IMG/VR virus record: IMGVR_UViG_3300000203_000003
Coordinates: 1-64,000 of that record
DNA length: 64,000 nt
Reading direction: 5' to 3' (one strand)
DNA from: a virus
Lineage: Duplodnaviria > Caudoviricetes
Part shown: positions 3,510-52,451 of the stretch, in pieces
Layout of the letters: each line of letters opens with the position of its first letter
Numbering within the stretch: position 1 is the first letter of the stretch
The notes under the pieces: model-generated
Databases searched by the model: none
What the model saw: only the letters and a program-made list of their open reading frames with translations
What the model was told of the DNA's origin: nothing
Translations under genes and position numbers: made by a program

Positions 3510-3953
3510 ATGGTAACATTCTTTCAGCACTTTATATCTCTATAGTCAGGTTCACCCGGCTATATGGGTCGATGTTATGTGAAGTATGGAAACGTAAAAC
3601 ATTGTTGTAATCCCTTCGAAATGAAGGCGGGCAAGACGCGAGTTCGAATCTCGCCAGGTCCACCAGTAAACACTATTAAAGATGCGATAACATCAACTCT
3701 CAGGGCTGGTACACCACATACCTCTCGAAGAAAGTATGTATAGACCGTATAGTGTTTACTAATGGGCCTGCTCTGGTAATCGATTGCGCGAGATAGTAGA
3801 GACGGCAACAGGAACGATGATGGACCTAATCCACATAAAAACGAGAAATGCAAATGACTCACAATTCCTAATGGTTGCCTAAACAGCACCACAGGCGAGG
3901 TAGAAAGACCTTGTAACCAAACCAATCAGAAAGGCTCTTCGGAGCCTTTTCTT
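3510..3953 (+). ncRNA. ssrA: Circularly permuted (two-piece) tmRNA; tag (A)ANDSQFLMVA*
   Basis: T-arm GCGAG-TTCGAAT-CTCGC plus CAGGTCC-A-CCA ending at 3665 comes before the 5' acceptor strand GGGCCTG at 3764 (G3-U70 pair). The intervening segment is closed by AGTAAACACTA/TAGTGTTTACT. Tag ORF at 3850-3882; terminator follows. 5' boundary approximate. Confidence 0.9.
3929..3953 (+). terminator. Intrinsic terminator
   Basis: GAAAGGCTC-TTCG-GAGCCTTTTCTT; near-identical to 6566..6593. Confidence 0.85.
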
Positions 3954-14673: not shown

Positions 14674-15291
14674 CTAATCTTCGCGTTGATTTGTATGAAG
14701 TCTCCACCCGTGGATAGATGACTGCTTGCCCTTAATTACTCTACTAAGATTGCCTGCCTCAATGTTGTGTTTCATTCGGAACTCATATTGAGGCATTCTT
14801 ATTACTTCTCCCGATCGTATATTCTCAAACCGGTATACAGTAGAATCAAACCGTGGATTTTTATCAGGGGAATAGTCTACTCGCCTCATGTAATGATTTA
14901 CTCCCGAGAATTTGTCCTTCACATCTTGTTTAGTCGCAGGATTATTGTTACCACGCAGTTTATCCTTTGAACTCTCCTGCCAAACAATGTTAGAAGCACC
15001 TTCACCACCGTCAGTTTTATTTCGGAGTATTCCTGTGTTAATGTCCTTGCGGCCATACCACCTTATTAACCGACGCTCAATCGCAAATGCCCCAATTTCA
15101 GAAAGATTTGTTTCGTGGATTACAATTCTTCTTTCGTCTTTCGGGGTCCAAACCCCCTTGCCGGATTTCCTATGTTGTTGCCATGCCCGAACGCCGGAAC
15201 CCTTGCCTATATAGTAAGGAGTATGATCCTCACGAAGATAGGCATAAGTATAAAATCCTTCTGGTGGGTGATTTCTTGAATAAATAGTCAT
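14674..15291 (-). CDS. GIY-YIG homing endonuclease
   Basis: [31 protein letters not shown]; C-terminal HTH-like domain. Confidence 0.85.
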
Positions 15292-15357
15292 GCTGATGCT
15301 CCTCTAAAGCGTTAGAGAGGGCGGGAATGTCCGTTCCGTGGCTCTCACTTTTATTTA
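15281..15357 (+). ncRNA. HEG-leader module copy A (candidate antisense sRNA between convergent TAAATA promoters)
   Basis: TAAATA..CTGATGCT/AGCGTTAG..GAGGGC-G-GGAA/TTCC-GTG-GCTCTC..ACTTTTATTTA. Confidence 0.7.
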
Positions 15358-16336: not shown

Positions 16337-16607
16337 TGTTCGGGTTATCGACGGCAAGCATGTCGTTGACAGCGAGATGGTTGTCCATCGCTTTACGGTT
16401 CCCTGGTCAGAAGACGCGGTATTGACTGCCGGCGCACCATTATGGGAGTGGGAACAAAGTGAAGCAGGTAAGTGGGTGATGGAACATGCAGTTGAGAAGC
16501 CGCGCTGGGAACGCTACACAGAACCGGTGGCCCTCAATGAAAGATTTGTTATAATAGCACGGCTCACTGCTCAGGATCAAACATATTTTAGATTGGCATA
16601 CGAATGA
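16305..16607 (+). CDS. Hypothetical protein, distantly F-x-L-R-W-like
   Basis: WEQSEAGKWVMEHA..ARLT..DQTYFRL; start uncertain. Confidence 0.55.
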   Translation: MTPSKQKWQYNVRVIDGKHVVDSEMVVHRFTVPWSEDAVLTAGAPLWEWEQSEAGKWVMEHAVEKPRWERYTEPVALNERFVIIARLTAQDQTYFRLAYE

Positions 16608-17566
16608 AGATTTTAGTAACAGGCGGTCTGGGCCTTATCGGACACAATGTAGTCGCACGATTAGAACAACAGGGGCATGATGTTGTGATTTTTGATACGC
16701 GAACAACATACGGAATCATCCCGCAAGATGAACTTGATTATCTGATGGAAGAACGATTGAAGAAGATCAAAGCTTACTTAATCTTCCGTACGGACATCTC
16801 CGGCGACAGTGCTTGCAGAATCATTCAGTCATATCGACCTGAGGTGGTGATGCACCTAGCAAGCTTCCCCAGACAGAAAGTTGTCAACAACAATCCGCAA
16901 CTTGGATCAAAGACAATGAGCGAGGGACTTTTGAATCTCCTCGAGGCGAGTGTCCAGGCGAAGGTTAAACGCTTCATGTATATCAGCAGCAGCATGGTCT
17001 ACGGTGACTTTACTGATGATGTACGTGAGGATTATGATTGTCGCCCACAGGGACAATACGGCATTATGAAATATGCTGGTGAGTTGCTTGTCAAAGACTA
17101 CACTAGGAAGCATGGTATGGCTCATACGATCATCCGACCAAGCGCGGTATACGGTCCGCTTGATGTGGAGGATCGCGTCATTGCGAAGTTTATGCTTCAG
17201 GCAATGCGTGGTGAAACGCTCAAAGTAAATGGATCAAACGAAACTCTGGACTTCACTTATGTCCAGGATGCCGCAGATGGATTCGTTGCAGCGGCCCTAA
17301 GTGATGCGACAGTTAACAGAACATACAACATCACCAAGAGCCATTCCAGGACGCTACTTGAGGCAGCGGAACTTGCCGTGAAGATCGTCGGAAAGGGAAA
17401 CATCGAGGTTCGTGGTAAGGACGCTGACTTCCCGAGTCGAGGTGCTCTGAACATCGATGCTGCTCGTCGAGACTTTGGATTCGACCCAAAAATAGATGTA
17501 GAAGAAGGCTTCCAGAAGTATTACGACTGGCTTTCAACATCACCATATTGGCAGAGCAGAATATGA
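16604..17566 (+). CDS. NAD-dependent epimerase/dehydratase
   Basis: VTGGLGLIG, SSSMVYG, YGIMK, RPSAVYGP, DFTYV.D. Confidence 0.9.
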   Translation: MKILVTGGLGLIGHNVVARLEQQGHDVVIFDTRTTYGIIPQDELDYLMEERLKKIKAYLIFRTDISGDSACRIIQSYRPEVVMHLASFPRQKVVNNNPQLGSKTMSEGLLNLLEASVQAKVKRFMYISSSMVYGDFTDDVREDYDCRPQGQYGIMKYAGELLVKDYTRKHGMAHTIIRPSAVYGPLDVEDRVIAKFMLQAMRGETLKVNGSNETLDFTYVQDAADGFVAAALSDATVNRTYNITKSHSRTLLEAAELAVKIVGKGNIEVRGKDADFPSRGALNIDAARRDFGFDPKIDVEEGFQKYYDWLSTSPYWQSRI

Positions 17567-17847
17567 AAACCGGAGTAAGAGGAACAACGACGGTTGACGC
17601 CGCATACTTCTATGCGCCCTACATACCATTAATGAAAAAACCTAAATATAGTTTCTCCCGGGCGAAATGGTATGTGGCAGAATTTGATCTTAAAGATTAT
17701 GACGAAGTTCGTCAATGGTGTTCGACACAGTTTGGTAAACATGACGGATGTACAGATGCATGGAGTCGTTGGTGGCATCGGTATGAAACAAGCATACACT
17801 TCCGTGATCAAAAAGATTATGTTCTGTTTATGTTAAGATGGTCATGA
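17563..17847 (+). CDS. F-x-L-R-W family protein with N-terminal capsid-like peptide
   Basis: Begins GVRGTTTVDAAYFYAPYIPLM; ends FRDQKDYVLFMLRWS. Confidence 0.7.
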   Translation: MKTGVRGTTTVDAAYFYAPYIPLMKKPKYSFSRAKWYVAEFDLKDYDEVRQWCSTQFGKHDGCTDAWSRWWHRYETSIHFRDQKDYVLFMLRWS

Positions 17848-18935
17848 TCCAACACTTCGGTCTCGTCAGGCAATACGCCAATCTCAAAGACGAACTCCTT
17901 GACGCCAGTGACCGGGCCATGCGTGAAGGGTGTCTTGTTGACGGGCCGTATGTAGATCAGTTTGAACACTGGCTATCCGGTAGAACTGATGTTCAATATG
18001 CAGTGACTTGCCACAGCGGGACACAGGCTCTGGAAATCATTGCCAGATATAGATATTCAGTATTTCAGGTATCACATCCGATATCGGCAATGCCGCCGAC
18101 CATTTGTCTACCGAATCTGACATATCCGGCAACGATGAATGCCTTTGTTAACGCCGGATGGAATGTTGAACTGGTTGATACCGACCGTAATGGATTAATG
18201 CTTCAAACGGGAAGCGTTAATGACCCCACTGGAAATTATGATTGTCCTGTTGGATTGTATGGTGCCCGACCTAGCCGTAATTACAAATATGATAATGGTT
18301 ACACTATCGTAGACGGCGCACAACATTGGCTTGTGTCCGACGGGCACATTGGTTCTGGTATGGCAATTTCGTTTGACCCGACAAAGAATTTACCATCATC
18401 TGGTAACGGTGGCGCCATTGTAACTCATAATGTGGATCTGCATAACTTCGCCAGAAACTACAAGAACAATGCGAAGTTGTCACAGCACGGAACATCAGGC
18501 ACCAATAGCAAGATGAGCGAACAAGATTGCGCCCAGATTCTGGTCAGAACAAAGTATATCAATGAATGGCAACAGCGCCGTAGAATGATTACTGAACATT
18601 GGTGCCGTGATCTGGCACATCTGGAGTATCAAACGCCCGGTCTGCGATGCCTGAGTCAAGGTGTGAAATATCATGCTCACCAGAAGTTTGTCGTTTACAC
18701 TTCAGATCGTGACGGACTATTCGGATACCTAAACAACAACGGCATCGAAGCAAAGATACATTATCCGCATACTCTCGGTGAGTTGCCGGTTGCCAAAGAC
18801 TTCAAGAAACCCGATATGATAAGCACCTCAGTTATGCTGTCCAGAGGCGTGTTAAGTCTGCCTATGTACCCAGAACTGACTGATGCCGAAGTAGAATACA
18901 TATCTAAAATAATACTTGCCTACTACGATAAATAA
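17844..18935 (+). CDS. DegT/DnrJ/EryC1/StrS PLP-dependent aminotransferase
   Basis: SGTQAL, DGAQH, SFDPTKNL...GNGGA, LSLPMYP. Confidence 0.9.
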   Translation: MIQHFGLVRQYANLKDELLDASDRAMREGCLVDGPYVDQFEHWLSGRTDVQYAVTCHSGTQALEIIARYRYSVFQVSHPISAMPPTICLPNLTYPATMNAFVNAGWNVELVDTDRNGLMLQTGSVNDPTGNYDCPVGLYGARPSRNYKYDNGYTIVDGAQHWLVSDGHIGSGMAISFDPTKNLPSSGNGGAIVTHNVDLHNFARNYKNNAKLSQHGTSGTNSKMSEQDCAQILVRTKYINEWQQRRRMITEHWCRDLAHLEYQTPGLRCLSQGVKYHAHQKFVVYTSDRDGLFGYLNNNGIEAKIHYPHTLGELPVAKDFKKPDMISTSVMLSRGVLSLPMYPELTDAEVEYISKIILAYYDK

Positions 18936-18939
18936 GTTT

Positions 18940-19449
18940 ATGTGGATCATTGATTTCTTTCCCGACTTCGTAGCGCATATCATTGTCGCAGTGGGTATCA
19001 TTGGGGTGTTAATAAGTTCGATACCGGTTATCTGGAACCTGATACCGGGTGCTGCTCTATACAAACTTCCGTTACAAATCATCAGCGTCCTTGCTCTTGT
19101 ATTCGGCGTATATCTTGAAGGCGGCATCGCAAAAGACGATTGGTGGAAAGCCAAAGTAAGCGCACTTGAAAAGAAAGTGAGTGAAGCGGAAGCAAAATCA
19201 GCCCGAGTTGATACCAAGATTGTTACCAAGCTACTTACTAAAAAACAAGTAGTAAAAGAAAAGGGTGACACCATTACTGAATACATTGAGCGTGAAGTAG
19301 TCAAGTATGATAATACCTGTCAGATACCAGTTGAAGTTATCAGATCACACAATGCAGCGGCGATGAACGACCTATTGTTACTGGTTCCGACCGATGCTCA
19401 TAACGCTCTTGCTGTGCCTACGATTAAATTGGCTCCTAAACATGAATAA
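18940..19449 (+). CDS. Inner-membrane spanin (Rz-like)
   Basis: N-terminal TM segments plus coiled coil; directly precedes a lipoprotein gene. Confidence 0.65.
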   Translation: MWIIDFFPDFVAHIIVAVGIIGVLISSIPVIWNLIPGAALYKLPLQIISVLALVFGVYLEGGIAKDDWWKAKVSALEKKVSEAEAKSARVDTKIVTKLLTKKQVVKEKGDTITEYIEREVVKYDNTCQIPVEVIRSHNAAAMNDLLLLVPTDAHNALAVPTIKLAPKHE

Positions 19450-19708
19450 GTCTCTGTTATTAGTATTATTGTTAGCGGGATGCAGCACCGTTGTACCTGT
19501 TAAACAGCAGTTCCCGGATATGCCAGCAGAACTGACGCAACCCTGTAAACCGCTGACGATTATCGAAGGTGAGAAAACCACTCTGTCCAAGTTAATGGAG
19601 ACCGTTGCTAAAAACTACGGATCAAGGCACGAATGTGCCGCTCAAGTAGAAGCAACTAAAGAGTGGTATCAGGAACAAAAGAAGATTTTTGACGAAACTA
19701 ACAAATAG
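19442..19708 (+). CDS. Outer-membrane spanin lipoprotein (Rz1-like)
   Basis: Lipobox LLLAGC, Pro-rich, two further Cys. Confidence 0.72.
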   Translation: MNKSLLLVLLLAGCSTVVPVKQQFPDMPAELTQPCKPLTIIEGEKTTLSKLMETVAKNYGSRHECAAQVEATKEWYQEQKKIFDETNK

Positions 19709-20155
19709 TTAGTTGCACCAGCTGGCTTTTGCGTCACCGTAGTACGCCCGAGCATATCCACTTGTGATAAGCATATCACGCAGACTCTTCCCGTCTAGTA
19801 AAACATCGCCAAGAACGCGGCCGCCGTATTTATCCCATGACATGATCACAACTTGGCGCTTGGTAGCAGCATTGACAGCAGCAGCGGTGAATTTAGTTGC
19901 TGCTTTTCCTTTTTCTATTTCAGCAGGACATTTCGCCTGTGCTGATAACTTCTCAGGTGTATCAACTCCCCATATTCTGATTGAAAGTTCAGGTTTCAAC
20001 GGGCCTGGGAGAAAAGATGCCTGAAAAGCCACGGTGTCACCGTCGATTACTCGGGTTACGGGGTAGTCATATGTGACTGAAGCAGGAACTTTGGGCGTGA
20101 CTGCAAATGCTGACAGTGACAGGAGAATAAGAATGATTGAGAGTAGTTTTTTCAT
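19709..20155 (-). CDS. Thermonuclease (SNase) family with signal peptide
   Basis: RVIDGDT, RIWGVDTPE, DKYGGRVLG. Confidence 0.88.
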   Translation of the reverse strand: MKKLLSIILILLSLSAFAVTPKVPASVTYDYPVTRVIDGDTVAFQASFLPGPLKPELSIRIWGVDTPEKLSAQAKCPAEIEKGKAATKFTAAAVNAATKRQVVIMSWDKYGGRVLGDVLLDGKSLRDMLITSGYARAYYGDAKASWCN

Positions 20156-26138: not shown

Positions 26139-26213
26139 TAAATAGTAGTGAGGATCACGGCCGGCAAGCCCACCCTCTCTAACGCCGTGAAAGGGCATCA
26201 GCATGAATATTTA
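26139..26213 (-). ncRNA. HEG-leader module copy B
   Basis: On the - strand: CTGATGCC/GGCGTTAG; GAGGGT-G-GGC/GCC-GTG-ATCCTC; TAAATA at both ends. Confidence 0.7.
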
Positions 26214-26856
26214 TTCAAGACAAAATCCACCCGAAGGTTTCTATGTATATGCCTACCTACGCGAAGATGGCACCCCGTATTACATTGGCAAGGGGAAAGC
26301 AAAACGAGCCTGGTATAAATCACCCGGTGAAGTTTATCCGCCCATAAATAAATCTAAAATAATCATTGTAGAGAAAAATTTAACTGAAGTGGGCGCTCTG
26401 TCTATTGAACGCCGGCTAATACGTTGGTATGGGAGAAAAGATGAGAATACCGGAATTCTACGAAACAAAACTGAGGGAGGGGACGGTGTATCAGGGTTAG
26501 TTCATTCTGCTGAATCCAAGAATAAAATGAGTGTTGCTAAGACGGGTAAAAAGCAACCTAAAATAAGTAAGGCTAAGCAGGGTATACCATTACCCCAGGA
26601 GACAAAACTAAAAATGAGCATATCCCATCGCGGTAAAATTCACACTGATGAACATAATAGAAAAGTATCAATCGCATTAACGGGCAAGAAGTTATCTCCC
26701 GATCATTGTACCGCCATCAGTGAGAGCCATAAAGGATATGTTCATAGTGAGGAATCCAACGTAAAACGATCCATAGCACTACGAGGTCGCCCACAATCTC
26801 CTGAGTCCATTCAAAAACGTCTTTTAACAAGATTAAAAAATAAAATAGCAATTTAA
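26203..26856 (+). CDS. GIY-YIG homing endonuclease with NUMOD3 repeats
   Basis: [16 protein letters not shown]; repeated HS.E..KMS.(A/S)..GK. Confidence 0.88.
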
Positions 26857-39842: not shown

Positions 39843-40518
39843 ACCGGTATTCTCTTGTGAGTTTTGTCGCAGAGTATTCCTTCGTGAGAAAACCATGTTC
39901 ACGCATATATGTGAGCGGAAACATCGTTGGGCTGAAAAAGATAAACAGGGTCCTCGCATCGGCTTTCAAGCATGGCTACAGTTCTATGCGAAGAATTCAA
40001 TGGGCAAGAAGAATCGCACCCAGGAAGAGTTCATCAAAAGCGCATACTACACGGCGTTCATCAAGTTCGGAACATACTGTGCCGGCGCGAATGTTGTTAA
40101 TGTAAGTAGATACACTGACTGGCTGCTGAAAGAACAGATCCGAATTGACAGTTGGAATCAAGATACCAACTATACCAAATTCCTTATAGAGTATATCCGC
40201 GTCGAGGATCCGATGGATGCGCTGGCCCGCAGCATTGAAACGACAATCAAAATGGCTGAAACGGAACGGATTTTGGCGCATGATATTCTGCGTTATGGGA
40301 ACCCGAATAAGATATGCTATCAAATCACGCTTGGAAAGATAAGTCCCTGGATGCTTTACCAGAGCGAAAGTGGCGTAGAGTTTTTATCAAAACTAAATGC
40401 TGACCAAGTACGAATCATTAATGACTACATAAATCCCGAGCAATGGGCAATCAAGTTTAAACGGGATCCGGAATCAGCAACGCAAGTAAAAGACTTATTG
40501 GTCGCTGCTGGCTATTAA
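39802..40518 (+). CDS. Hypothetical protein with N-terminal zinc finger
   Basis: CEFC...F......H.C. Confidence 0.7.
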   Translation: MKKSTNTKPTEETKPVFSCEFCRRVFLREKTMFTHICERKHRWAEKDKQGPRIGFQAWLQFYAKNSMGKKNRTQEEFIKSAYYTAFIKFGTYCAGANVVNVSRYTDWLLKEQIRIDSWNQDTNYTKFLIEYIRVEDPMDALARSIETTIKMAETERILAHDILRYGNPNKICYQITLGKISPWMLYQSESGVEFLSKLNADQVRIINDYINPEQWAIKFKRDPESATQVKDLLVAAGY

Positions 40519-41087
40519 TTTAGCTGCTTTGGTTGCTTTACATTTAGCAATACTTTCAGCAGTATTAGTATTAAGTGTTCCGTTCTTGCGCCTGCTCTCT
40601 TTTAATTTAGCTTTGCTCTCATCAGTCCAAGTATTGAGATTACCGTTTTTGCGTCTGGTAGCGATTCGCTTGGCGATATTCTCCGGAGTAGGTTTTAATG
40701 TTCCGTTTGCTGCCATTGTTGCTAATCTTTTTTTGGTGCTTTCAGGCTTAGTTAAGTATGTATTGTTAGACCTCCGCGCCGCGACGACCTTGGCAATTAT
40801 TTCGGGGGTAGTACCGCCGTTACCGGATTCCGGTTTTAAGTTGGCCCATTCATCACTCTCGACAACGTTCCATTCTTCACTGTAATGGATTCCCATTCTT
40901 TAAGTTCATCTTTGGATTGGCACTCGCGGATTATTTCGGTTGTTATATCTTTGCCGTGTTTATTTAAATGGCGCTCCCAATGTAAACCTGAACCGAGGTA
41001 TTTGTGAGGATCTTTGCGTTTTGTCTGACAGAGGTATTTTAGACCGGTAATATTATGGGTCTTTACCATGAGGTAATAAATAGTCAT
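40495..41087 (-). pseudogene. GIY-YIG-type homing endonuclease split by a frameshift near 40893
   Basis: YLMVKTH..TGLKYL.QT..Y.GSG..W then ELKEW|GIHYS..WNVVES..WANL.PESG.GG in another frame; one G missing. Confidence 0.78.
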
Positions 41088-41160
41088 GCTGGTGCTCCTT
41101 ATTTAGTTATAGCATTAGAGAGGGTGGGAAGTCCAATTCCGCGATCCTCACTTCTATTTA
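41077..41160 (+). ncRNA. HEG-leader module copy D
   Basis: CTGGTGCT/AGCATTAG; GAGGGT-G-GGAA/TTCC-GCG-ATCCTC; TAAATA at both ends. Confidence 0.7.
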
Positions 41161-41228: not shown

Positions 41229-41453
41229 ATGGATTACAGTAGAGATGTTGACATTGATGTTAAAGATGAGAATCACTTTGACGAACTCCTTGATTGGTGC
41301 GAACAAAATGTAGCCGTGTTGCCAGTTAGTGCAAGTTGCTTGCCGTGGACATGGTCTGGTGATGCTACTCATTCGCCAACTACATCACACAACAATACCT
41401 TCTCCTTTGCGCGTCAGAGCGATGCCATGATGTTTATCCTGAGGTGGTTATGA
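41229..41453 (+). CDS. F-x-L-R-W family protein 1
   Basis: Ends FSFARQSDAMMFILRWL. Confidence 0.75.
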   Translation: MDYSRDVDIDVKDENHFDELLDWCEQNVAVLPVSASCLPWTWSGDATHSPTTSHNNTFSFARQSDAMMFILRWL

Positions 41454-41683
41454 ACGCCAAGCAACGCCGACAAATCGAACGCCGACTCTGCCATAAGGTT
41501 GTCTTCCGCTATAAACCATACACTGATTTTGACGAAGACGACCTGGACGAGGAAGTTCAACACCGGTGTAATAAGAATATCGGACGAGAGAACTGGAGAA
41601 GGGATCAAGGTGGCTGGGCATCTCGTGGATACTTCTTTGCTGATCAGAAGCATGTTACCTTGTTTGTATTGAGGTGGTTATGA
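41450..41683 (+). CDS. F-x-L-R-W family protein 2
   Basis: Ends FFADQKHVTLFVLRWL. Confidence 0.75.
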   Translation: MNAKQRRQIERRLCHKVVFRYKPYTDFDEDDLDEEVQHRCNKNIGRENWRRDQGGWASRGYFFADQKHVTLFVLRWL

Positions 41684-41874
41684 CTACTTTTAATTTTAAT
41701 GTAAACGATTTTCCTAATTTACGTGAGGAGTTTGGTCGATCAAACTATACCAATTGGATCACTTTTTTATATGATCTTGGGTATAAATTTCGTTGGAATC
41801 ATTATGCTTCAAATAAAAAATTCGTTGAAATGGATGAGGCTGATTTTGTGTGGTTCTCATTGAGGTGGTCATGA
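41680..41874 (+). CDS. F-x-L-R-W family protein 3
   Basis: Ends MDEADFVWFSLRWS. Confidence 0.75.
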   Translation: MTTFNFNVNDFPNLREEFGRSNYTNWITFLYDLGYKFRWNHYASNKKFVEMDEADFVWFSLRWS

Positions 41875-42119
41875 TATACACTGACATTAACTCATTGTAT
41901 CCAAACATTATGTCATATATACCACAGAAATTCTTCAAAATCGCTGAGGCTGAAGTGGATGGTGCCATGTGGTATACTCTGTTCATTGAACCTGAGGTTA
42001 TGATGTGGTTGAAGTCTATTAACTCATCTCAGTGGGTATATGAGCCCGGCGGCAGCTGGCGGCTGTATGTTGATGTTCACGAACAACTTTATTCGGCACT
42101 GGTGCTGCGCTGGGGTTAA
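41871..42119 (+). CDS. F-x-L-R-W family protein 4 (PolB-motif-like N-terminus)
   Basis: Begins YTDINSLYPNIM; ends ALVLRWG. Confidence 0.75.
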   Translation: MIYTDINSLYPNIMSYIPQKFFKIAEAEVDGAMWYTLFIEPEVMMWLKSINSSQWVYEPGGSWRLYVDVHEQLYSALVLRWG

Positions 42120-42120
42120 T

Positions 42121-42339
42121 ATGGCGAAGTATCATTCAGAAGGCGGCCAGTTTGACCCGGAGTTTAGACACCGGGTAAGCGTTGATCGTCCAACTTATGA
42201 AATGATCGAATGGTGTAATCAGTATCCGACGAAAGGATCCGGTGACCGGTATTACATAAAGTGGAGTCCTCGCACCAGTGCTATTTTTTCGTTTGAAACA
42301 GAGGAACCAAGTATTATGTTTGCGTTGAGGTGGTTATGA
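42121..42339 (+). CDS. F-x-L-R-W family protein 5
   Basis: Ends FSFETEEPSIMFALRWL. Confidence 0.75.
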   Translation: MAKYHSEGGQFDPEFRHRVSVDRPTYEMIEWCNQYPTKGSGDRYYIKWSPRTSAIFSFETEEPSIMFALRWL

Positions 42340-42524
42340 AGGTATATCAAGTTGTGGGTTATCCGAAAAGTCATTACTTCGTCAGAACCTGGTGTGAGTT
42401 TGATGAGATAATGCGCTGGATGCATAAGAACAAAGTGGGCTATCTACATGAATCCTATAGCCATCACGGCATCGGATTCAGTCTTCGTTCTAATGCTGAA
42501 TGGTTTCTATTGAGGTGGGAATGA
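42336..42524 (+). CDS. F-x-L-R-W family protein 6
   Basis: Ends AEWFLLRWE. Confidence 0.75.
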   Translation: MKVYQVVGYPKSHYFVRTWCEFDEIMRWMHKNKVGYLHESYSHHGIGFSLRSNAEWFLLRWE

Positions 42525-42808
42525 AACTTAAAAAACTTGACAAACGAATGACTGGGTATGGTGACTTTCAATACTCTGTGGACTTCCCGGTTAACCGCGG
42601 TAAGGTCCTGATGGATTTCTTTGAAGTGCGGGAATGGTGCTTTGAACAATGGGGAAGATCCGCAGAGATTGATATATGGCAGAAGTTCCCGCAGATTCAG
42701 AATCCTGCTTGGGCATGGGAACGCGGAGAATACAACAAGATGTATCGGTGCAGAATCTTTCTGGCATCAGATAAAGAAGCTGAATGGTTTCTATTGAGGT
42801 GGTTATGA
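42521..42808 (+). CDS. F-x-L-R-W family protein 7
   Basis: EVREWC..W; ends DKEAEWFLLRWL. Confidence 0.75.
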   Translation: MKLKKLDKRMTGYGDFQYSVDFPVNRGKVLMDFFEVREWCFEQWGRSAEIDIWQKFPQIQNPAWAWERGEYNKMYRCRIFLASDKEAEWFLLRWL

Positions 42809-43089
42809 ATCTCTTTTACGAACTTGCTGATACTATGGTGTGTAAACGACCTGACGGACAAAAGTATCTGGCTCAGTATGGGCTGAAACTCAACAGGGTT
42901 ATGGATCCGGCAACTTTTGAAATGGTTGATACCCTCAACTACAACCGTCGAGCATTGTGGTATTCAGATAGAGTCTGGCTTGAGGGAGACACCGAAGTCA
43001 AGTATTTCAAGAATAGATTTACCGGTGACGATACAGTAGTTGATATGAAGGAATTTATGTGGATTAAACTAAAGGCTCAAACATTATGA
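42805..43089 (+). CDS. Array protein 8 (divergent C-terminus)
   Basis: Ends EFMWIKLKAQTL. Confidence 0.7.
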   Translation: MNLFYELADTMVCKRPDGQKYLAQYGLKLNRVMDPATFEMVDTLNYNRRALWYSDRVWLEGDTEVKYFKNRFTGDDTVVDMKEFMWIKLKAQTL

Positions 43090-43334
43090 GTTGGCAAAAC
43101 GATTTGATAGAGGCTCAGAATTGGTTTAAGTTTGAACCAATGGACGCACAAACGCTGGCTGAACTTGATAAAGTGTTCCGAGCAAAACGCCCAGGACCCT
43201 GGAAGATGACCTGGAATAGAAACGCCGCGAACTATTCATACAACAGACTACGAGCAATGAATGAGTATCTGGTTTGCATTGTATTTGAAAATGAACAAGA
43301 CGAAGTATGGTGGTTATTACAAAATGGAGACTGA
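43086..43334 (+). CDS. Array protein 9 (divergent C-terminus)
   Basis: Ends FENEQDEVWWLLQNGD. Confidence 0.7.
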   Translation: MSWQNDLIEAQNWFKFEPMDAQTLAELDKVFRAKRPGPWKMTWNRNAANYSYNRLRAMNEYLVCIVFENEQDEVWWLLQNGD

Positions 43335-43581
43335 GGAAGAATTCAACAAACGAGTCAGCAGATTCGTTCAACTGGGACTGATGATGGGTGGTAACATGCC
43401 AGTAGATTATATCACTTGTATTGAAGTGAACTGGTATGAATCGTTTGCTCTGCTACCGCACAAAACAATCGCCGGCAAATGGGTATGGTTCAGAAAGATA
43501 TTCAAACGACGAGTATGGAAATGCACCGGCTTCGCTGACGAACCCTTTACTGAATACGGAGAACTATTTGATCTGTTATGA
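43324..43581 (+). CDS. Array protein 10 (unrelated small protein)
   Basis: W.ESFA.LP..TI.G.WVW. Confidence 0.65.
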   Translation: METEEEFNKRVSRFVQLGLMMGGNMPVDYITCIEVNWYESFALLPHKTIAGKWVWFRKIFKRRVWKCTGFADEPFTEYGELFDLL

Positions 43582-43976
43582 TTACCTATATCAAAGATAA
43601 AACTCGGCAGTTTTTTCATGCCCGTGATTTGAAACGGATGGGAATAACGCAGGCACAATATGATCGTGCGTATGATCCTGATATCAATTTCCGTGCCACC
43701 AGAGTGAGAGATATGTATCCGGGCTATCCGTATGTTTTTGAAAAACAATACTCTGATGCGTTCTGGAGTCAATTCGGCGACTGGGAACAGGGTCTGACTA
43801 TGATGAGAGTATGGTGCCAGGCGAACTGCCAAAGCAAATGGCGCGATGACTTTCACCGAGTGATGAAAGATTACTGGAGTGAATGGGTGTGTAGTGAAAT
43901 CGGCGGCGGAGATGTTCTGTTCTTCGCTTTCAAAAGTGAGCAAGAGTATATGTGGTTTACACTGAGGTGGGCATGA
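43578..43976 (+). CDS. F-x-L-R-W family protein 11
   Basis: Ends FAFKSEQEYMWFTLRWA. Confidence 0.75.
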   Translation: MITYIKDKTRQFFHARDLKRMGITQAQYDRAYDPDINFRATRVRDMYPGYPYVFEKQYSDAFWSQFGDWEQGLTMMRVWCQANCQSKWRDDFHRVMKDYWSEWVCSEIGGGDVLFFAFKSEQEYMWFTLRWA

Positions 43977-44206
43977 AATACAGAGAATACGAATTACTCA
44001 ATGATCCGGGATATGTTGATGAATATTGCGTCGATCTATCACCGTATCCAGTGGATCGGACCGAGGAAGAACGGGCTAAATTGTGGCAGATTTCAGTTGA
44101 TGCTATAGATAATTTTAACGCCGACTCATTGGGTTCAAGATTGTTTTTCAAATCTGATGATGACCGACAGAAGTTTTTAACTTGGTATACATTGAGGTGG
44201 ACATGA
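43973..44206 (+). CDS. F-x-L-R-W family protein 12
   Basis: Ends FLTWYTLRWT. Confidence 0.75.
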   Translation: MKYREYELLNDPGYVDEYCVDLSPYPVDRTEEERAKLWQISVDAIDNFNADSLGSRLFFKSDDDRQKFLTWYTLRWT

Positions 44207-44454
44207 AGTTCTGGAACAAAGATAAAGATATTCGGCGCAGATGCTGGACCAAAGTGAATCACCCTCTGAGGACTGCTCGTTGGGTGCTGAACTCAGGTGA
44301 TGCTATCTTTACCGAGCGTCTTCTCTATGAGGATTTGAAGCGTTGGTGTCAGCAACAGGCAAGCCCCGGACGATTCTATCACTACTACGGTGCAGATTCA
44401 TGGTGGTTTGAGAACCCACATGACGCCACGCACTTTCTATTGAGGTGGGCATAA
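44203..44454 (+). CDS. F-x-L-R-W family protein 13
   Basis: Ends WFENPHDATHFLLRWA. Confidence 0.75.
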   Translation: MKFWNKDKDIRRRCWTKVNHPLRTARWVLNSGDAIFTERLLYEDLKRWCQQQASPGRFYHYYGADSWWFENPHDATHFLLRWA

Positions 44455-48478: not shown

Positions 48479-49249
48479 ATGTATTCCACACAAGTATTCC
48501 TATACACTCAGCGCCAGATAGTTGTTTTGCTATCTGGCACTTCACCGAGGTCATATATGCCCCAATACGCTAAACCACTTACGCTGCATCGCGGCGTTGA
48601 CAATCAACTCCAATTCAAGTTTCTGAACCAAGAACAAAAACCCGTGGACATCACTGGTCTGGAGATTACCTGTAGAATCATCAACGCTGACGGAACCGCT
48701 GTGCTATTCAACAAAGCACTTACCCTGACGCTACCATTGACCGGCCTTGCCGTGCTGACCATGAATGCTGCGGACCTTGAAGATATTGACGCACAGAAAT
48801 GCTCTTACTCTCTGGAGATACCAGTTAACAGTCTGGGTCTTCCCGTATTCGTTGATCAGAACGCAGGTGCCCGCGGCGACATGTTCATTGTGAACTCAGT
48901 GATGCCAAGCTTTGTTCCGTCTTTCTCTGTCTCTATCCCGTCAGGTCAGCCGTTCCCGAATATCTCTAATACGGCAAACGCCAACTCGCCGGGACAGACT
49001 TACTTCTCCAGTGTGCTTGATAATAACAGCAACCCGGTTCTGACCCTACAGTCAACATACGACGGTTACTATGGTAATGTTTCCATTCAAGGTTCGGTGA
49101 TCGAATCCGCAGATTGGTATGTCATTGATACCTATTCATACGCTAACGCAGCAGATACCAAAGGCTACACTGTTAAAGGATTCCATCCTTATATCCGTGT
49201 TGAGTATGTAAGCAACTGTGGCGCGGTCACGAACATATTGGCAAGATAG
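48479..49249 (+). CDS. Virion structural protein (baseplate-upper-like beta domain)
   Basis: Late promoter; [22 protein letters not shown]. Confidence 0.55.
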
Positions 49250-49252
49250 GAA

Positions 49253-49331
49253 TAAATAGAAGTGTAGTCCACGAGTCTCTTACCTCTCCGACTACTCTAC
49301 TGCTAAAAAGGAGCACCAGCATGAGTATTTA
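49253..49331 (-). ncRNA. HEG-leader module copy E (divergent, compensatory changes)
   Basis: On the - strand: CTGGTGCT/AGCAGTAG; GTAGTC-G-GAG/CTC-GTG-GACTAC. Confidence 0.65.
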
Positions 49332-50000
49332 TTCAAAAACCAATCCTCCCGAAGATTCCTATTTATACGCCTATTTACGAGAAGATGGGACGCCTTATTA
49401 TATCGGCAAAGGGACTTACAGACGAGCCTGGGAAAAGGGTAGAGGAGAAATTCAACTTCCTAGCGATAGAAACAGGATAGTAATATTAGAAGCCGGGTTG
49501 AACGAAGTAGGTGCGTTGGCGTTAGAGCGCCGATATATACGTTGGTACGGACGAATGGATAAGAATACAGGAATCCTTCGGAATATGACGGATGGCGGTG
49601 ACGGGGCAGCGGCGCAGTTCGTTCCGACGATTGTAAATTGTTACATAAAGTTATCACAACTAACTACCATGCTGCCTTATCCGAAACGCAGATAAAAACA
49701 AGGGCTAATAATTGTTCAGCCGGCCAACGAAATCGTTTTAAATTAACGCCCGAGTCAGTATTAACTAAAGAACGAAAGAGCAAATCGCATCAAGGTAAAT
49801 ATCTGATAATTAGTCCGGCCGGTGAATCTCATTCCGCGGCGTCGGGATTAAAAGAATTTGCCCTAATACATGGTGATCTATTGCAGGTAACATATTGGCA
49901 ATTATTCAACGCATATAGAAAATCTTATCATACAATCCCAACCAAAAGAATACGAAGTGATGCAAATAATTGGAAAGTAACCCGCATTGATAACGACTGA
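49321..50000 (+). pseudogene. GIY-YIG homing endonuclease split by a frameshift at GGGG 49603-49606
   Basis: [24 protein letters not shown]; adding one G joins it to ORF 49638..50000. Confidence 0.72.
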
Positions 50001-50044: not shown

Positions 50045-51031
50045 ATGCTTAACATAGCCTCTATTATTCCCGGAAAGAAAAAGAATACCAGTACTGGGTG
50101 GTTAACTTTTAATTCAGTATGTTGTCAGCACCGCGGTCACAAAGCTGACAGGCGAATGCGCGGTGGTATTAAAGTAGAAGGAAATACCCAAATATACCAT
50201 TGTTTCAATTGTGGATACAGTTGCGCCTTTACTATGGGCCGGAGCATCAATCAAAAGACAACTAATCTTCTCAACTGGTGCGGGATAGACACTGAACAAA
50301 TTCAGCGATGGTCATTTGAGTCGCTTCAACGCAAAGACTTGTTAGACTTTACACATACGAAGAAGCATAAATCAAAGATAACATTCAAAGAGTTCAAGGT
50401 GCCACCAGAGGCAACTCTTCTGGATCAAACAAATCCCGAACACCAGCACTATGTTGACTATCTTCTAAAGAGACACATCAATCCAGCAGAGTATCCATTC
50501 ATGATTACTCCGGGCATGCCGGGACGATACAGAAATCGGATCGTTATCCCGTATACATACAATAACAAGATCGTCGGACAGACAAGTAGATTTTTAGATA
50601 CGCTGACACCAAAGTATCTCAATGAACAGCAACCGGGATATGTATTTGGTATCGACTTTCAGAAGCCTGAGTGGCAAGTATGTATTCTGGTCGAAGGGAT
50701 ATTTGATGCGCTGAGTATCAATGGCTGTGCCCTCACACATAACACGATCAATGAGGATCAGGCCAGGTTACTTGCACAGTTGAACAGACGCATCATTGTA
50801 GTACCAGACAGAGACTTGACTGGTATGGATATATGCGACCGAGCATTAGAGTTAGGATACAGCGTCAGCATACCTGATTGGGCACCGTACATAAAAGATG
50901 TGAATGACGCAGTAGTAGAATATGGGAAGTTGCCGACGCTGTTAAGCATATTAGAAGCGGCAACTTCATCAAAGATAAGAGTAGAAATTCAAAGGAACAA
51001 AATTGTCAAAAGATTACAAAAAGGAAGATAA
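50045..51031 (+). CDS. DNA primase (T4 gp61-like)
   Basis: Zn finger C..H..YHCFNC, RIVIP, TOPRIM VEGIFDA, PDRD, KDVNDA. Confidence 0.9.
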   Translation: MLNIASIIPGKKKNTSTGWLTFNSVCCQHRGHKADRRMRGGIKVEGNTQIYHCFNCGYSCAFTMGRSINQKTTNLLNWCGIDTEQIQRWSFESLQRKDLLDFTHTKKHKSKITFKEFKVPPEATLLDQTNPEHQHYVDYLLKRHINPAEYPFMITPGMPGRYRNRIVIPYTYNNKIVGQTSRFLDTLTPKYLNEQQPGYVFGIDFQKPEWQVCILVEGIFDALSINGCALTHNTINEDQARLLAQLNRRIIVVPDRDLTGMDICDRALELGYSVSIPDWAPYIKDVNDAVVEYGKLPTLLSILEAATSSKIRVEIQRNKIVKRLQKGR

Positions 51032-52451
51032 GCAGGTAGAATACACCCCTGAGGTGCAGACATTATTTTTAAGGATGATGCTTACCAACGCGGTGTTGTA
51101 TACTCGCGTGGCAAACATTATGAATGCCGCAAACTTTGATAAGACGCTGCGCCCTGTTGCTGAGATGTTCAAGGAGCATGGTGAGAAATACAATGTGTTA
51201 CCAGATGCCTCACAGATCAAAGCATTGACGGGTCAAGACATTGAACCAATCCCCGAACTGAATGAAGGGCACTATCAATGGTTTCTGGATGAGTTTGAGA
51301 AATTCACAAAGAAGCAAGAACTTGAACGCGCAATCCTGAAGAGTGCTGATTTGTTAGAGAAGGGCGGGGACTTCTCCCCAGTCGAAAAGCTGATCAAAGA
51401 TGCAGTTCAAATCAGTCTGCAAAAAGATATGGGCACTGATTACTTTGCTGATCCGCGTGGACGATTGCTGGCACTGAAAACTAACAACGGACAGAATAGC
51501 ACAGGGTGGCCTACTATGGACAGGGCCCTATACGGTGGATTCAACCGCGGCGAACTTCAAATCTTTGCGGGTGGATCTGGTTCCGGCAAGTCTTTGTTTC
51601 TTCAAAATCTTGCTGTCAACTGGTCACAAGCAGGATTCAACGGAGCATACATCACACTTGAATTGGCTGAAGGTCTCTGTTCAATGCGTATCGATTCGAT
51701 GATGACCGATACATCGTCACGAAACATCTTCAAAGACATTGACAACGTTGAGATGAAGGTCAAGATGATGGCGAAGAAGTCTGGTAAGATGCGTATCAAG
51801 TATATGCCCGCACAGTCGAATGTGAATGATATTCGGGCATACTGTAAAGAGTTGATGATTCAAACTGGAGTCAAAGTTGACTATTTGTGCGTAGATTATC
51901 TTGATCTGATCATGCCAGTCTCTGTTAAAGTATCACCAGAAAATCTGTTCATCAAGGACAAATATGTCGCAGAAGAATTGCGTAATCTGGCAAAAGAATT
52001 GAATGTTCTGTTTGTGACAGCATCACAGCTTAATCGTTCGGCAGTTGAAGAAATTGAATTTGATCACAGTCATATCTCAGGTGGTATCAGTAAGATTAAT
52101 ACTGCGGATAACGTTATGGGTATTTTTACTAGTCGTGCTATGCGTGAACGTGGACAGTATCAACTTCAACTGATGAAAACTCGTTCCAGTTCGGGTGTTG
52201 GTCAGAAGATTGAGTTACAATTCAATGTGGAAACTCTGCGAATCACTGATGATGGCGGCGGAGAAGATGAATCAAGCTACAGACCACAGACAGCGCCGAC
52301 TCCGTCCCCGTTAGAAACAATAACAGGGGTGAAGCCTACTCCGTTTACTGACATATCACAACTTGCCGAAGTTGAACCCTGGACTAAGCACGTTGTCTCT
52401 GACGTTCAAGGCTCTAAGTTAAAGTCTCTGTTAAATTCCCTGAAGAAATGA
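51003..52451 (+). CDS. Replicative DnaB-like helicase (T4 gp41-like)
   Basis: STGW, GGSGSGKS, TLEL, VDYLDL, TASQLNR, KTR. Confidence 0.92.
   Translation: MSKDYKKEDKQVEYTPEVQTLFLRMMLTNAVLYTRVANIMNAANFDKTLRPVAEMFKEHGEKYNVLPDASQIKALTGQDIEPIPELNEGHYQWFLDEFEKFTKKQELERAILKSADLLEKGGDFSPVEKLIKDAVQISLQKDMGTDYFADPRGRLLALKTNNGQNSTGWPTMDRALYGGFNRGELQIFAGGSGSGKSLFLQNLAVNWSQAGFNGAYITLELAEGLCSMRIDSMMTDTSSRNIFKDIDNVEMKVKMMAKKSGKMRIKYMPAQSNVNDIRAYCKELMIQTGVKVDYLCVDYLDLIMPVSVKVSPENLFIKDKYVAEELRNLAKELNVLFVTASQLNRSAVEEIEFDHSHISGGISKINTADNVMGIFTSRAMRERGQYQLQLMKTRSSSGVGQKIELQFNVETLRITDDGGGEDESSYRPQTAPTPSPLETITGVKPTPFTDISQLAEVEPWTKHVVSDVQGSKLKSLLNSLKK

Follow-up and report, generated by a model that had tools for sequence, protein, structure and literature searches.

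Genomic context and organization of ORF 17563–17847

The DNA analyzed here (the window) comprises the first 64 kb (64,000 nucleotides) of a 141,978-bp IMG/VR record from an uncultured giant freshwater phage. The record was judged to be 41% complete, and the phage is therefore a jumbo phage with a genome of roughly 350 kb. Its clade is very abundant in metagenomes and ranks among the most abundant freshwater jumbo-phage clades. A hint to the host group comes from a phage-encoded tmRNA of the betaproteobacterial type at window positions 3555–3952 (+) (Rfam RF01850, 116 bits). No DNA match to window positions 17300–18100 was found among GenBank phages.

The ORF of interest is a plug-in small-gene cassette that is wedged between an epimerase and an aminotransferase gene in a sugar-nucleotide operon. 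The features of the locus are:

16604–17566 (+): NAD-dependent epimerase/dehydratase gene, upstream (Pfam PF01370, E 1.7e-42)
17563–17847 (+): ORF of interest, 94-aa product
17563–17566 (+): ATGA junction, read from the sequence, in which ATG 17563–17565 overlaps TGA 17564–17566 of the epimerase gene
17569–17637 (+): capsid-like tail, residues 3–25, a segment of the major capsid protein (MCP) ending in FY-x-PYIPL (T4 gp23 ~437–458); predicted disordered
17632–17634 (+): internal ATG (Met24), a rival start codon, replaced by Ser in ortholog P0021 and by Lys in ortholog P0072
17644–17844 (+): body, residues 28–94, with a predicted folded beta-alpha-beta-beta-alpha domain (residues 37–93) and a Leu-Arg-Trp-Ser end
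17830–17847 (+): 3′ end of the ORF, Leu-Arg-Trp-Ser-stop, which overlaps the start of the next gene (ATG 17838 or ATG 17844)
17838–18935 (+): DegT/DnrJ-type aminotransferase gene, downstream (Pfam PF01041, E 2.4e-39)

The ORF belongs to the LRW family by its C-terminal conserved domain of 60–70 residues that ends with hydrophobic-x-Leu-(Arg/Lys)-Trp. It also shows a further trait of this family, i.e., stops and starts that overlap with those of the neighboring genes, with the Arg-Trp codons serving as the ribosome-binding site of the next gene. Here, these codons form a Shine-Dalgarno-like AAGATGG (with the following ATGA, 17833–17847); two of the three syntenic orthologs have GAGGTGG at this place. 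These orthologs (P0021, P0009, and P0072) all have the long form of the tail, and all lie directly 5′ of the aminotransferase gene. The epimerase gene was confirmed upstream of P0021; in P0009 and P0072, the upstream gene is cut at the contig end and has the same 3′-end sequence. All three orthologs overlap the neighboring genes on both sides by four bases. Directly 3′ of the aminotransferase gene lie a spanin-like pair (PHROG 2536/4952) and a secreted thermonuclease-like gene (PHROG 452), at 18916–19708 (+) and 19709–20155 (−).

The N-terminal tail matches a conserved segment of the major capsid protein

Residues 3–24 of the ORF product matched the Pfam family Gp23 (PF07068) at profile positions 305–326 of 376 (E 7.9e-4). 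The score of this match (19.4 bits) is below the family cut-off of 24.4 bits, as expected of a 22-residue piece. PHROG 138 (“major head protein”) matched residues 3–25 with an E-value of 4e-3. This tail is the sole Gp23-like stretch of the whole 142-kb record. When the 1063 small ORFs of the record were compared with the long ORFs of two genomes, its match was among the more significant ones. The ORF includes a piece of an MCP and is not itself an MCP: its product has 94 residues, the matching segment is predicted to be disordered, and the profile is covered over a short stretch. The preliminary description of this locus, made from the sequence alone, had pointed to a similar stretch of T4 gp23. 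This stretch is real; it was recovered in an alignment to PDB chain 6uzc_a (~residues 437–456 of 521), with the match counted as 9 of 20 residues. A search of PDB sequences with the tail alone gave no match.

The MCP of this phage itself is absent from the 41%-complete record, and all MCP comparisons were made with relatives. A profile was built from five real MCPs of related phages with genomes of 260–374 kb. Of note, more than 8000 relatives of the MCP of this phage clade (L086–L090) are present in the protein collection, with an identity of 92% or higher for each of the top 120. Against the five-MCP profile, the tail scored 19.5 bits, whereas none of 2000 shuffled versions of its 26 residues scored above 5.0 bits. 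The tail is identical to the MCPs of the relatives at 13 of 23 residues, and this identity is unevenly distributed. An alignment of 14 MCPs (two clades) has 12 invariant columns in this segment, of which the tail retains 10 and alters two conservatively; of the nine variable columns, it matches only three (Fisher one-sided p 0.03).

A second T4-like MCP clade in the same collections, which is unrelated, has exactly the nine-residue core YFYAPYIPL of the tail. The tail resembles a consensus rather than the MCP of the phage clade itself, because its variable columns mix the states of the jumbo-phage MCPs and of the second T4-like clade. In addition, the tails share derived states that are absent from the MCPs of the clade, for example an Ala in place of the Cys of the MCPs. 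At the DNA level, the tail and the MCP genes of the relatives are ~55% identical, and the same codon is used at ~40% of the shared residues. The tail is probably an old capture that has not been refreshed from the MCP gene, because its likeness to the MCP is found in the protein and not in the DNA.

The tail is probably translated and is more constrained than the body

The tail is very probably translated from ATG17563, most likely by stop/start coupling with the epimerase gene. The preliminary description had called for a check that ATG17563 rather than ATG17632 is the start codon, and the orthologs bear this out: all three share the ATGA overlap at 17563, and Met24 is replaced in two of them. 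Translation from ATG17632, with the capsid-like stretch as an untranslated spacer, is very improbable, as the weak point of ATG17563 (no strong Shine-Dalgarno sequence before it) is shared by ATG17632, which has none either, and the 69 bases 5′ of ATG17632 evolve as coding sequence, with a pN/pS of 0.17–0.35.

Substitution rates were compared between the tail and the body in four genes (the ORF and its three orthologs). The pN of the tail was 0.02–0.15, compared to 0.30–0.37 for the body. The pS was similar in both parts, at 0.5–0.9 (up to 0.89), except for the closest pair, where it was 0.18. Amino-acid changes in the tail were conservative (Tyr/Phe, Ile/Met, and Arg/Lys). Among ten IMG/VR homologs, the conserved Tyr, Ala, Pro, and Ile residues of the core motif were each encoded by 2–4 synonymous codons. 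These patterns indicate that the tail is the most constrained part of the protein and that it is under strong purifying selection as protein.

The body is a small folded domain of an undescribed, apparently phage-specific family

An AF2 model based on 31 homologs predicted a confident beta-alpha-beta-beta-alpha fold for residues 37–93, with pLDDT values of about 77–92 over residues 31–94. The pLDDT of the tail was 48–62, and the tail is accordingly predicted to be disordered. It consists of an aromatic/hydrophobic core followed by Lys-Lys-Pro-Lys.

No family matching the body was found in Pfam or PHROG, and a Foldseek search of the body against the PDB returned nothing at an E-value of 1e-3 or better. 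A wide VIA-align search gave a best Z of 5.2, to generic alpha/beta sandwiches, and thus no convincing structural neighbor. Only unnamed viral clusters were retrieved from the ESM Atlas. The sequence profile of the body matched 500 clusters at an E-value of 1e-3 or better among 1.84 billion representatives. The 150 clusters listed consist of small proteins in which the body is always C-terminal, barring one unrelated 611-aa repeat protein. The 68-residue body represents an undescribed family that is apparently confined to phages. The body is an independent unit with the tails as accessory add-ons, because 60 of 146 representatives have almost no residues (<20) before the body.

Taken together, the description of the 94-aa ORF as an LRW body with a capsid motif at its N-terminus was confirmed by its sequence, by the Gp23 and PHROG matches, and by the body profile. 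The further proposal that a captured capsid segment is displayed on a small scaffold is supported by the MCP match, by the selection on the tail, and by the folded body. Neither of the outcomes that the preliminary description had named as refuting it was observed: the comparisons favor the start at 17563 over 17632, and homologs retain the peptide, whose match exceeds all shuffled controls.

Homologs carry tails from several core proteins of the phage

Simple patterns were used to search the region before the body in 118 close homologs, and recognizable motifs were found in 109 of them. The most frequent was a segment with the Asn-Leu-Cys-x-Glu active-site signature of RNR (58/118). The Gol-equivalent N-terminal segment of the MCP, which is absent from ORF 17563–17847, occurred in 33 homologs. 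The C-terminal MCP segment carried by this ORF (core motif) was present in 32, so that the peptide is kept among homologs as well as matching the MCP profile better than any of the shuffled controls. A P-loop segment was found in 31 and a segment similar to PolB motif B in 15 homologs. In twelve homologs, both MCP motifs (N-terminal and C-terminal) are present and follow the order of the parent protein. The order of the segments is fixed (P-loop, PolB, RNR, MCP C-segment, and body, with the MCP N-segment before the MCP C-segment), and no inversion was observed among 95 ordered pairs.

The parents of the tails were sought by comparing one profile per set of tail segments with 295 long ORFs from the record and from a complete 364-kb relative (G002). 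For the MCP tail segments, the top match was the MCP (E 3.8e-15 and 6.5e-5), and the RNR profile matched the RNR large subunit (E 5.7e-5). The P-loop profile matched the DnaB-like helicases of both genomes (E 6.8e-5 and 2.2e-4). The PolB profile ranked the PolB of both genomes first and second, although weakly (E 0.17 and 0.24). Large terminase was also considered as the parent of the P-loop tails and was rejected, as ten long homologs showed no Pfam terminase signal and the profile picked the DnaB-like helicases. No parent was found among the 295 long ORFs for two short tail modules, the six-residue YPKTSA and LNRLP. For the P-loop tails, the best parent is encoded in the window at:

50985–52448 (+): DnaB-like replicative helicase (Pfam DnaB_C, 6e-20)

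In P0017 and its relatives, and at G002 201472–201843, the RNR tail combines the NLC-x-E loop with the LCTLG motif and has a shortened stretch in between. The RNR tail of this group runs straight into the MCP motif at a shared Gly-Ala-Phe, which is a possible microhomology joint. Other subfamilies of the body also have tails with MCP, P-loop, and PolB motif A segments. Of a run of five adjacent array genes in G002, four have tails: PolB motif A, P-loop, RNR plus MCP, and the MCP N-segment.

Small-gene arrays, the post-epimerase slot, and homing-endonuclease-like genes

Most homologs sit in long arrays of overlapping small genes, and ORF 17563–17847 lies outside any array. The window contains one such array and several homing-endonuclease-like genes:

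41229–44454 (+): tandem array in which at least 10 distant paralogs of the small-domain family overlap at their junctions and have LRW-type ends
41871–42119 (+): array member with a PolB motif A N-terminus, in which DINSLYP is identical (7/7) to the PolB of this phage
14677–15303 (−): homing-endonuclease-like gene (PHROG 314)
26191–26853 (+): homing-endonuclease-like gene (PHROG 314)
40839–41102 (−) with 40498–40899 (−): homing-endonuclease-like gene (PHROG 314)
49204–49692 (+): homing-endonuclease-like gene (PHROG 314)

More of these homing-endonuclease-like genes are found outside the window. They form a large paralogous set, with a dozen in the genome, and have GIY-YIG-like motifs (PHROG 314, E down to 1e-12). 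One adjoins thyA, and the one at 40.5–41.1 kb is apparently split into two ORFs. The family B DNA polymerase is also found in two ORFs, outside the window (G000 130817–132547 and 133260–134522; L117/L118). It is split between motifs A and B with a gap of ~0.7 kb and corresponds to a single 904-aa ORF in G002. The split PolB is flanked by homing-endonuclease-like genes, and no intron was found there by Rfam.

Relatives (L134–L213) differ in what follows the epimerase gene: this slot is either empty or occupied by at least seven unrelated types of genes. The occupants include a tail-less member of the family and, in G002, a different member with an MCP N-segment tail. Others are an HNH gene, a radical-SAM-like gene, and an unrelated gene of 65–70 residues. 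A specific tie between MCP-tailed genes and the sugar operon was rejected in view of these many unrelated occupants. Likewise, an intron or intein origin of the tail was rejected, as the ORF is flanked by epimerase and aminotransferase genes and not by the MCP gene, and its homologs lie in small-gene arrays. Rfam detected no intron in the window.

A proposed role of the tail as a linear-peptide mimic

The explanation that we favor, although with less than even confidence, is that the tail is a linear-peptide mimic that is read by a binding partner and competes with the real capsid protein. A partner that reads the preserved residues is the simplest view, because the tails preserve what is unchangeable in their parents, even catalytic signatures that would serve no purpose in a disordered peptide. 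The tail would also be available for binding, because it is predicted to be disordered. By this mechanism, the tail would present residues that the MCP cannot change and would compete for the reader of that segment on nascent or unfolded MCP, with the folded domain acting as a stable carrier or as a blocker. Most likely, the reader would come from the host and would be either a chaperone or a sensor for abortive infection that resembles Lit/Gol/EF-Tu. The sister proteins may do likewise with the invariant motifs of RNR, the replicative helicase, and PolB and thus form a set of core-protein look-alikes. The decoy function that was proposed in the preliminary description is therein plausible, as judged from the sequence comparisons. 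Tails also derive from a second MCP segment, RNR, PolB, and the DnaB-like helicase, which speaks against a role that is specific to the capsid and in favor of invariant core motifs being displayed in general.

The closest precedent is Gol of T4. This 29-residue region is the most conserved part of gp23; it binds EF-Tu and switches on the Lit protease (encoded by e14) (PMC3014915). It supports the mimicry explanation as a case in which a linear stretch of nascent gp23 is read by the host. Both Gol and the tail are short, linear, conserved capsid stretches, with Gol recognized and the tail proposed to be recognized as a peptide, and sister proteins of the ORF carry a copy of exactly the Gol region (the N-terminal MCP motif). 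The precedent is imperfect because it concerns a different MCP segment: the tail of ORF 17563–17847 corresponds to T4 residues ~437–458 and not to residues 93–122 (the region around the GVQPM motif). Moreover, Gol belongs to the capsid protein itself and elicits defense, whereas the peptide of the ORF is located on a separate small protein.

Other known systems are more distant. Phage anti-defense mimics and sponges (e.g., the DNA mimic Ocr) and the short-linear-motif mimics of eukaryotic viruses imitate host molecules or DNA. As proposed for the ORF, a viral protein of the Ocr type imitates a recognized pattern and occupies its reader; in contrast to Ocr, the ORF family would imitate core proteins of the phage itself. 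The internal proteins of T4 are small phage proteins with a short N-terminal capsid-targeting sequence that is linked to head assembly. This sequence is likewise a short, head-related N-terminal peptide, but its similarity to the tail of the ORF is limited to the first three residues, and the RNR, helicase, and PolB tails of the ORF family do not fit this function. No account of small phage proteins that display invariant motifs of their own core proteins was found in the literature, Pfam, PHROG, or solved structures. By this comparison, the Gol peptide is the closest published idea.

Several observations count against mimicry. The copied segment is hydrophobic and, as we assume from HK97-type folds, probably buried in the folded MCP. 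Many members of the family are tail-less, which makes the tail an accessory feature. A sensor should be activated and not blunted by a protein that resembles its trigger, unless the body blocks signaling. Finally, the known sensors of capsid, terminase, and polymerase (Avs families) recognize folds and not short peptides (bioRxiv 10.64898/2026.01.04.697583). A disordered 22-residue peptide would not be obviously visible to such fold-sensing capsid sensors, and this analogy also speaks against mimicry.

A broader form of the mimicry explanation is that the small domain is a common display scaffold for the unchangeable peptide signatures of the capsid protein, RNR, helicase, and polymerase of the phage, and that it saturates or misdirects host surveillance of nascent or unfolded phage proteins. 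We regard this proposal as doubtful.

Alternative explanations for the tail

The tail could instead act on capsid assembly by docking on the MCP, scaffold, or chaperonin of its own phage, where it would time the small domain or target it to the procapsid, or on those of co-infecting T4-like phages as a dominant-negative strand. It does copy a strand of the MCP and retains the packing residues of the parent; the identity of YFYAPYIPL with the second T4-like clade and the 12 homologs with both MCP motifs in the parental order also agree with this explanation. It leaves the RNR, helicase, and PolB tails on the same body unexplained, and we consider it unlikely.

Equally unlikely, in our estimate, is that the likeness to the MCP is merely historical and that the tail is now a generic hydrophobic peptide with basic flanks, i.e., a chaperone-binding site, a degron, or a self-association site. 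The disorder of the tail and its aromatic/hydrophobic core followed by Lys-Lys-Pro-Lys suit such a peptide, and purifying selection as such shows function and not mimicry. However, the conservation falls exactly on the invariant columns of the parent, and the sister tails keep the RNR Asn, Cys, and Glu residues and the helicase P-loop, which a sticky peptide would not need.

Slightly less probable still is that the tail is a functionless relic, in which filler DNA from a broken core gene was caught in frame at the cassette junction, perhaps during the repair of a homing-endonuclease cut. The surroundings would favor such an event: the genome has a dozen homing-endonuclease-like genes, the post-epimerase slot is a hot spot where many different genes (one of them HNH) are found, and RNR and MCP pieces abut at the possible Gly-Ala-Phe microhomology. 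Homing enzymes also typically cut in the codons of invariant motifs (PMC3943268), which would explain which motifs are captured. This scenario accounts for the origin of the tail but not for its maintenance, since the tail evolves more slowly than any other part of the protein despite nearly saturated synonymous sites, and it has outlived a nucleotide divergence of ~45% from the MCP gene.

Selection could also act on the DNA, with the tail sequence mimicking the recognition site of a homing endonuclease (as a landing pad, a trap, or the remnant of a homing site). Homing enzymes read the non-wobble bases of invariant codons (PMC3943268), which would also give a low pN with a high pS, and many such genes are present here. 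We nevertheless consider this quite improbable: no endonuclease gene adjoins the locus (the nearest, beside thyA, is 2.3 kb away), the observed amino-acid changes are conservative, as for a protein, and a cleavable site within the operon would have no visible benefit.

Implications for phage counter-defense

Bacterial immunity often keys on phage parts that are unable to mutate. If phages keep expendable copies of such invariant peptides on a carrier, as the favored mimicry explanation holds, this would be a new logic of counter-defense, namely self-mimicry. The tails would then amount to a list of the peptide patterns that matter, each a bait for its reader. The broader display-scaffold proposal, if true, would describe a counter to pattern recognition by self-imitation and would imply that bacteria have undiscovered sensors that read peptides. 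Even without the decoy function, the ORF is unusual, as a disordered gene fragment of 25 residues appears to be under tighter selection than the folded domain to which it is attached.
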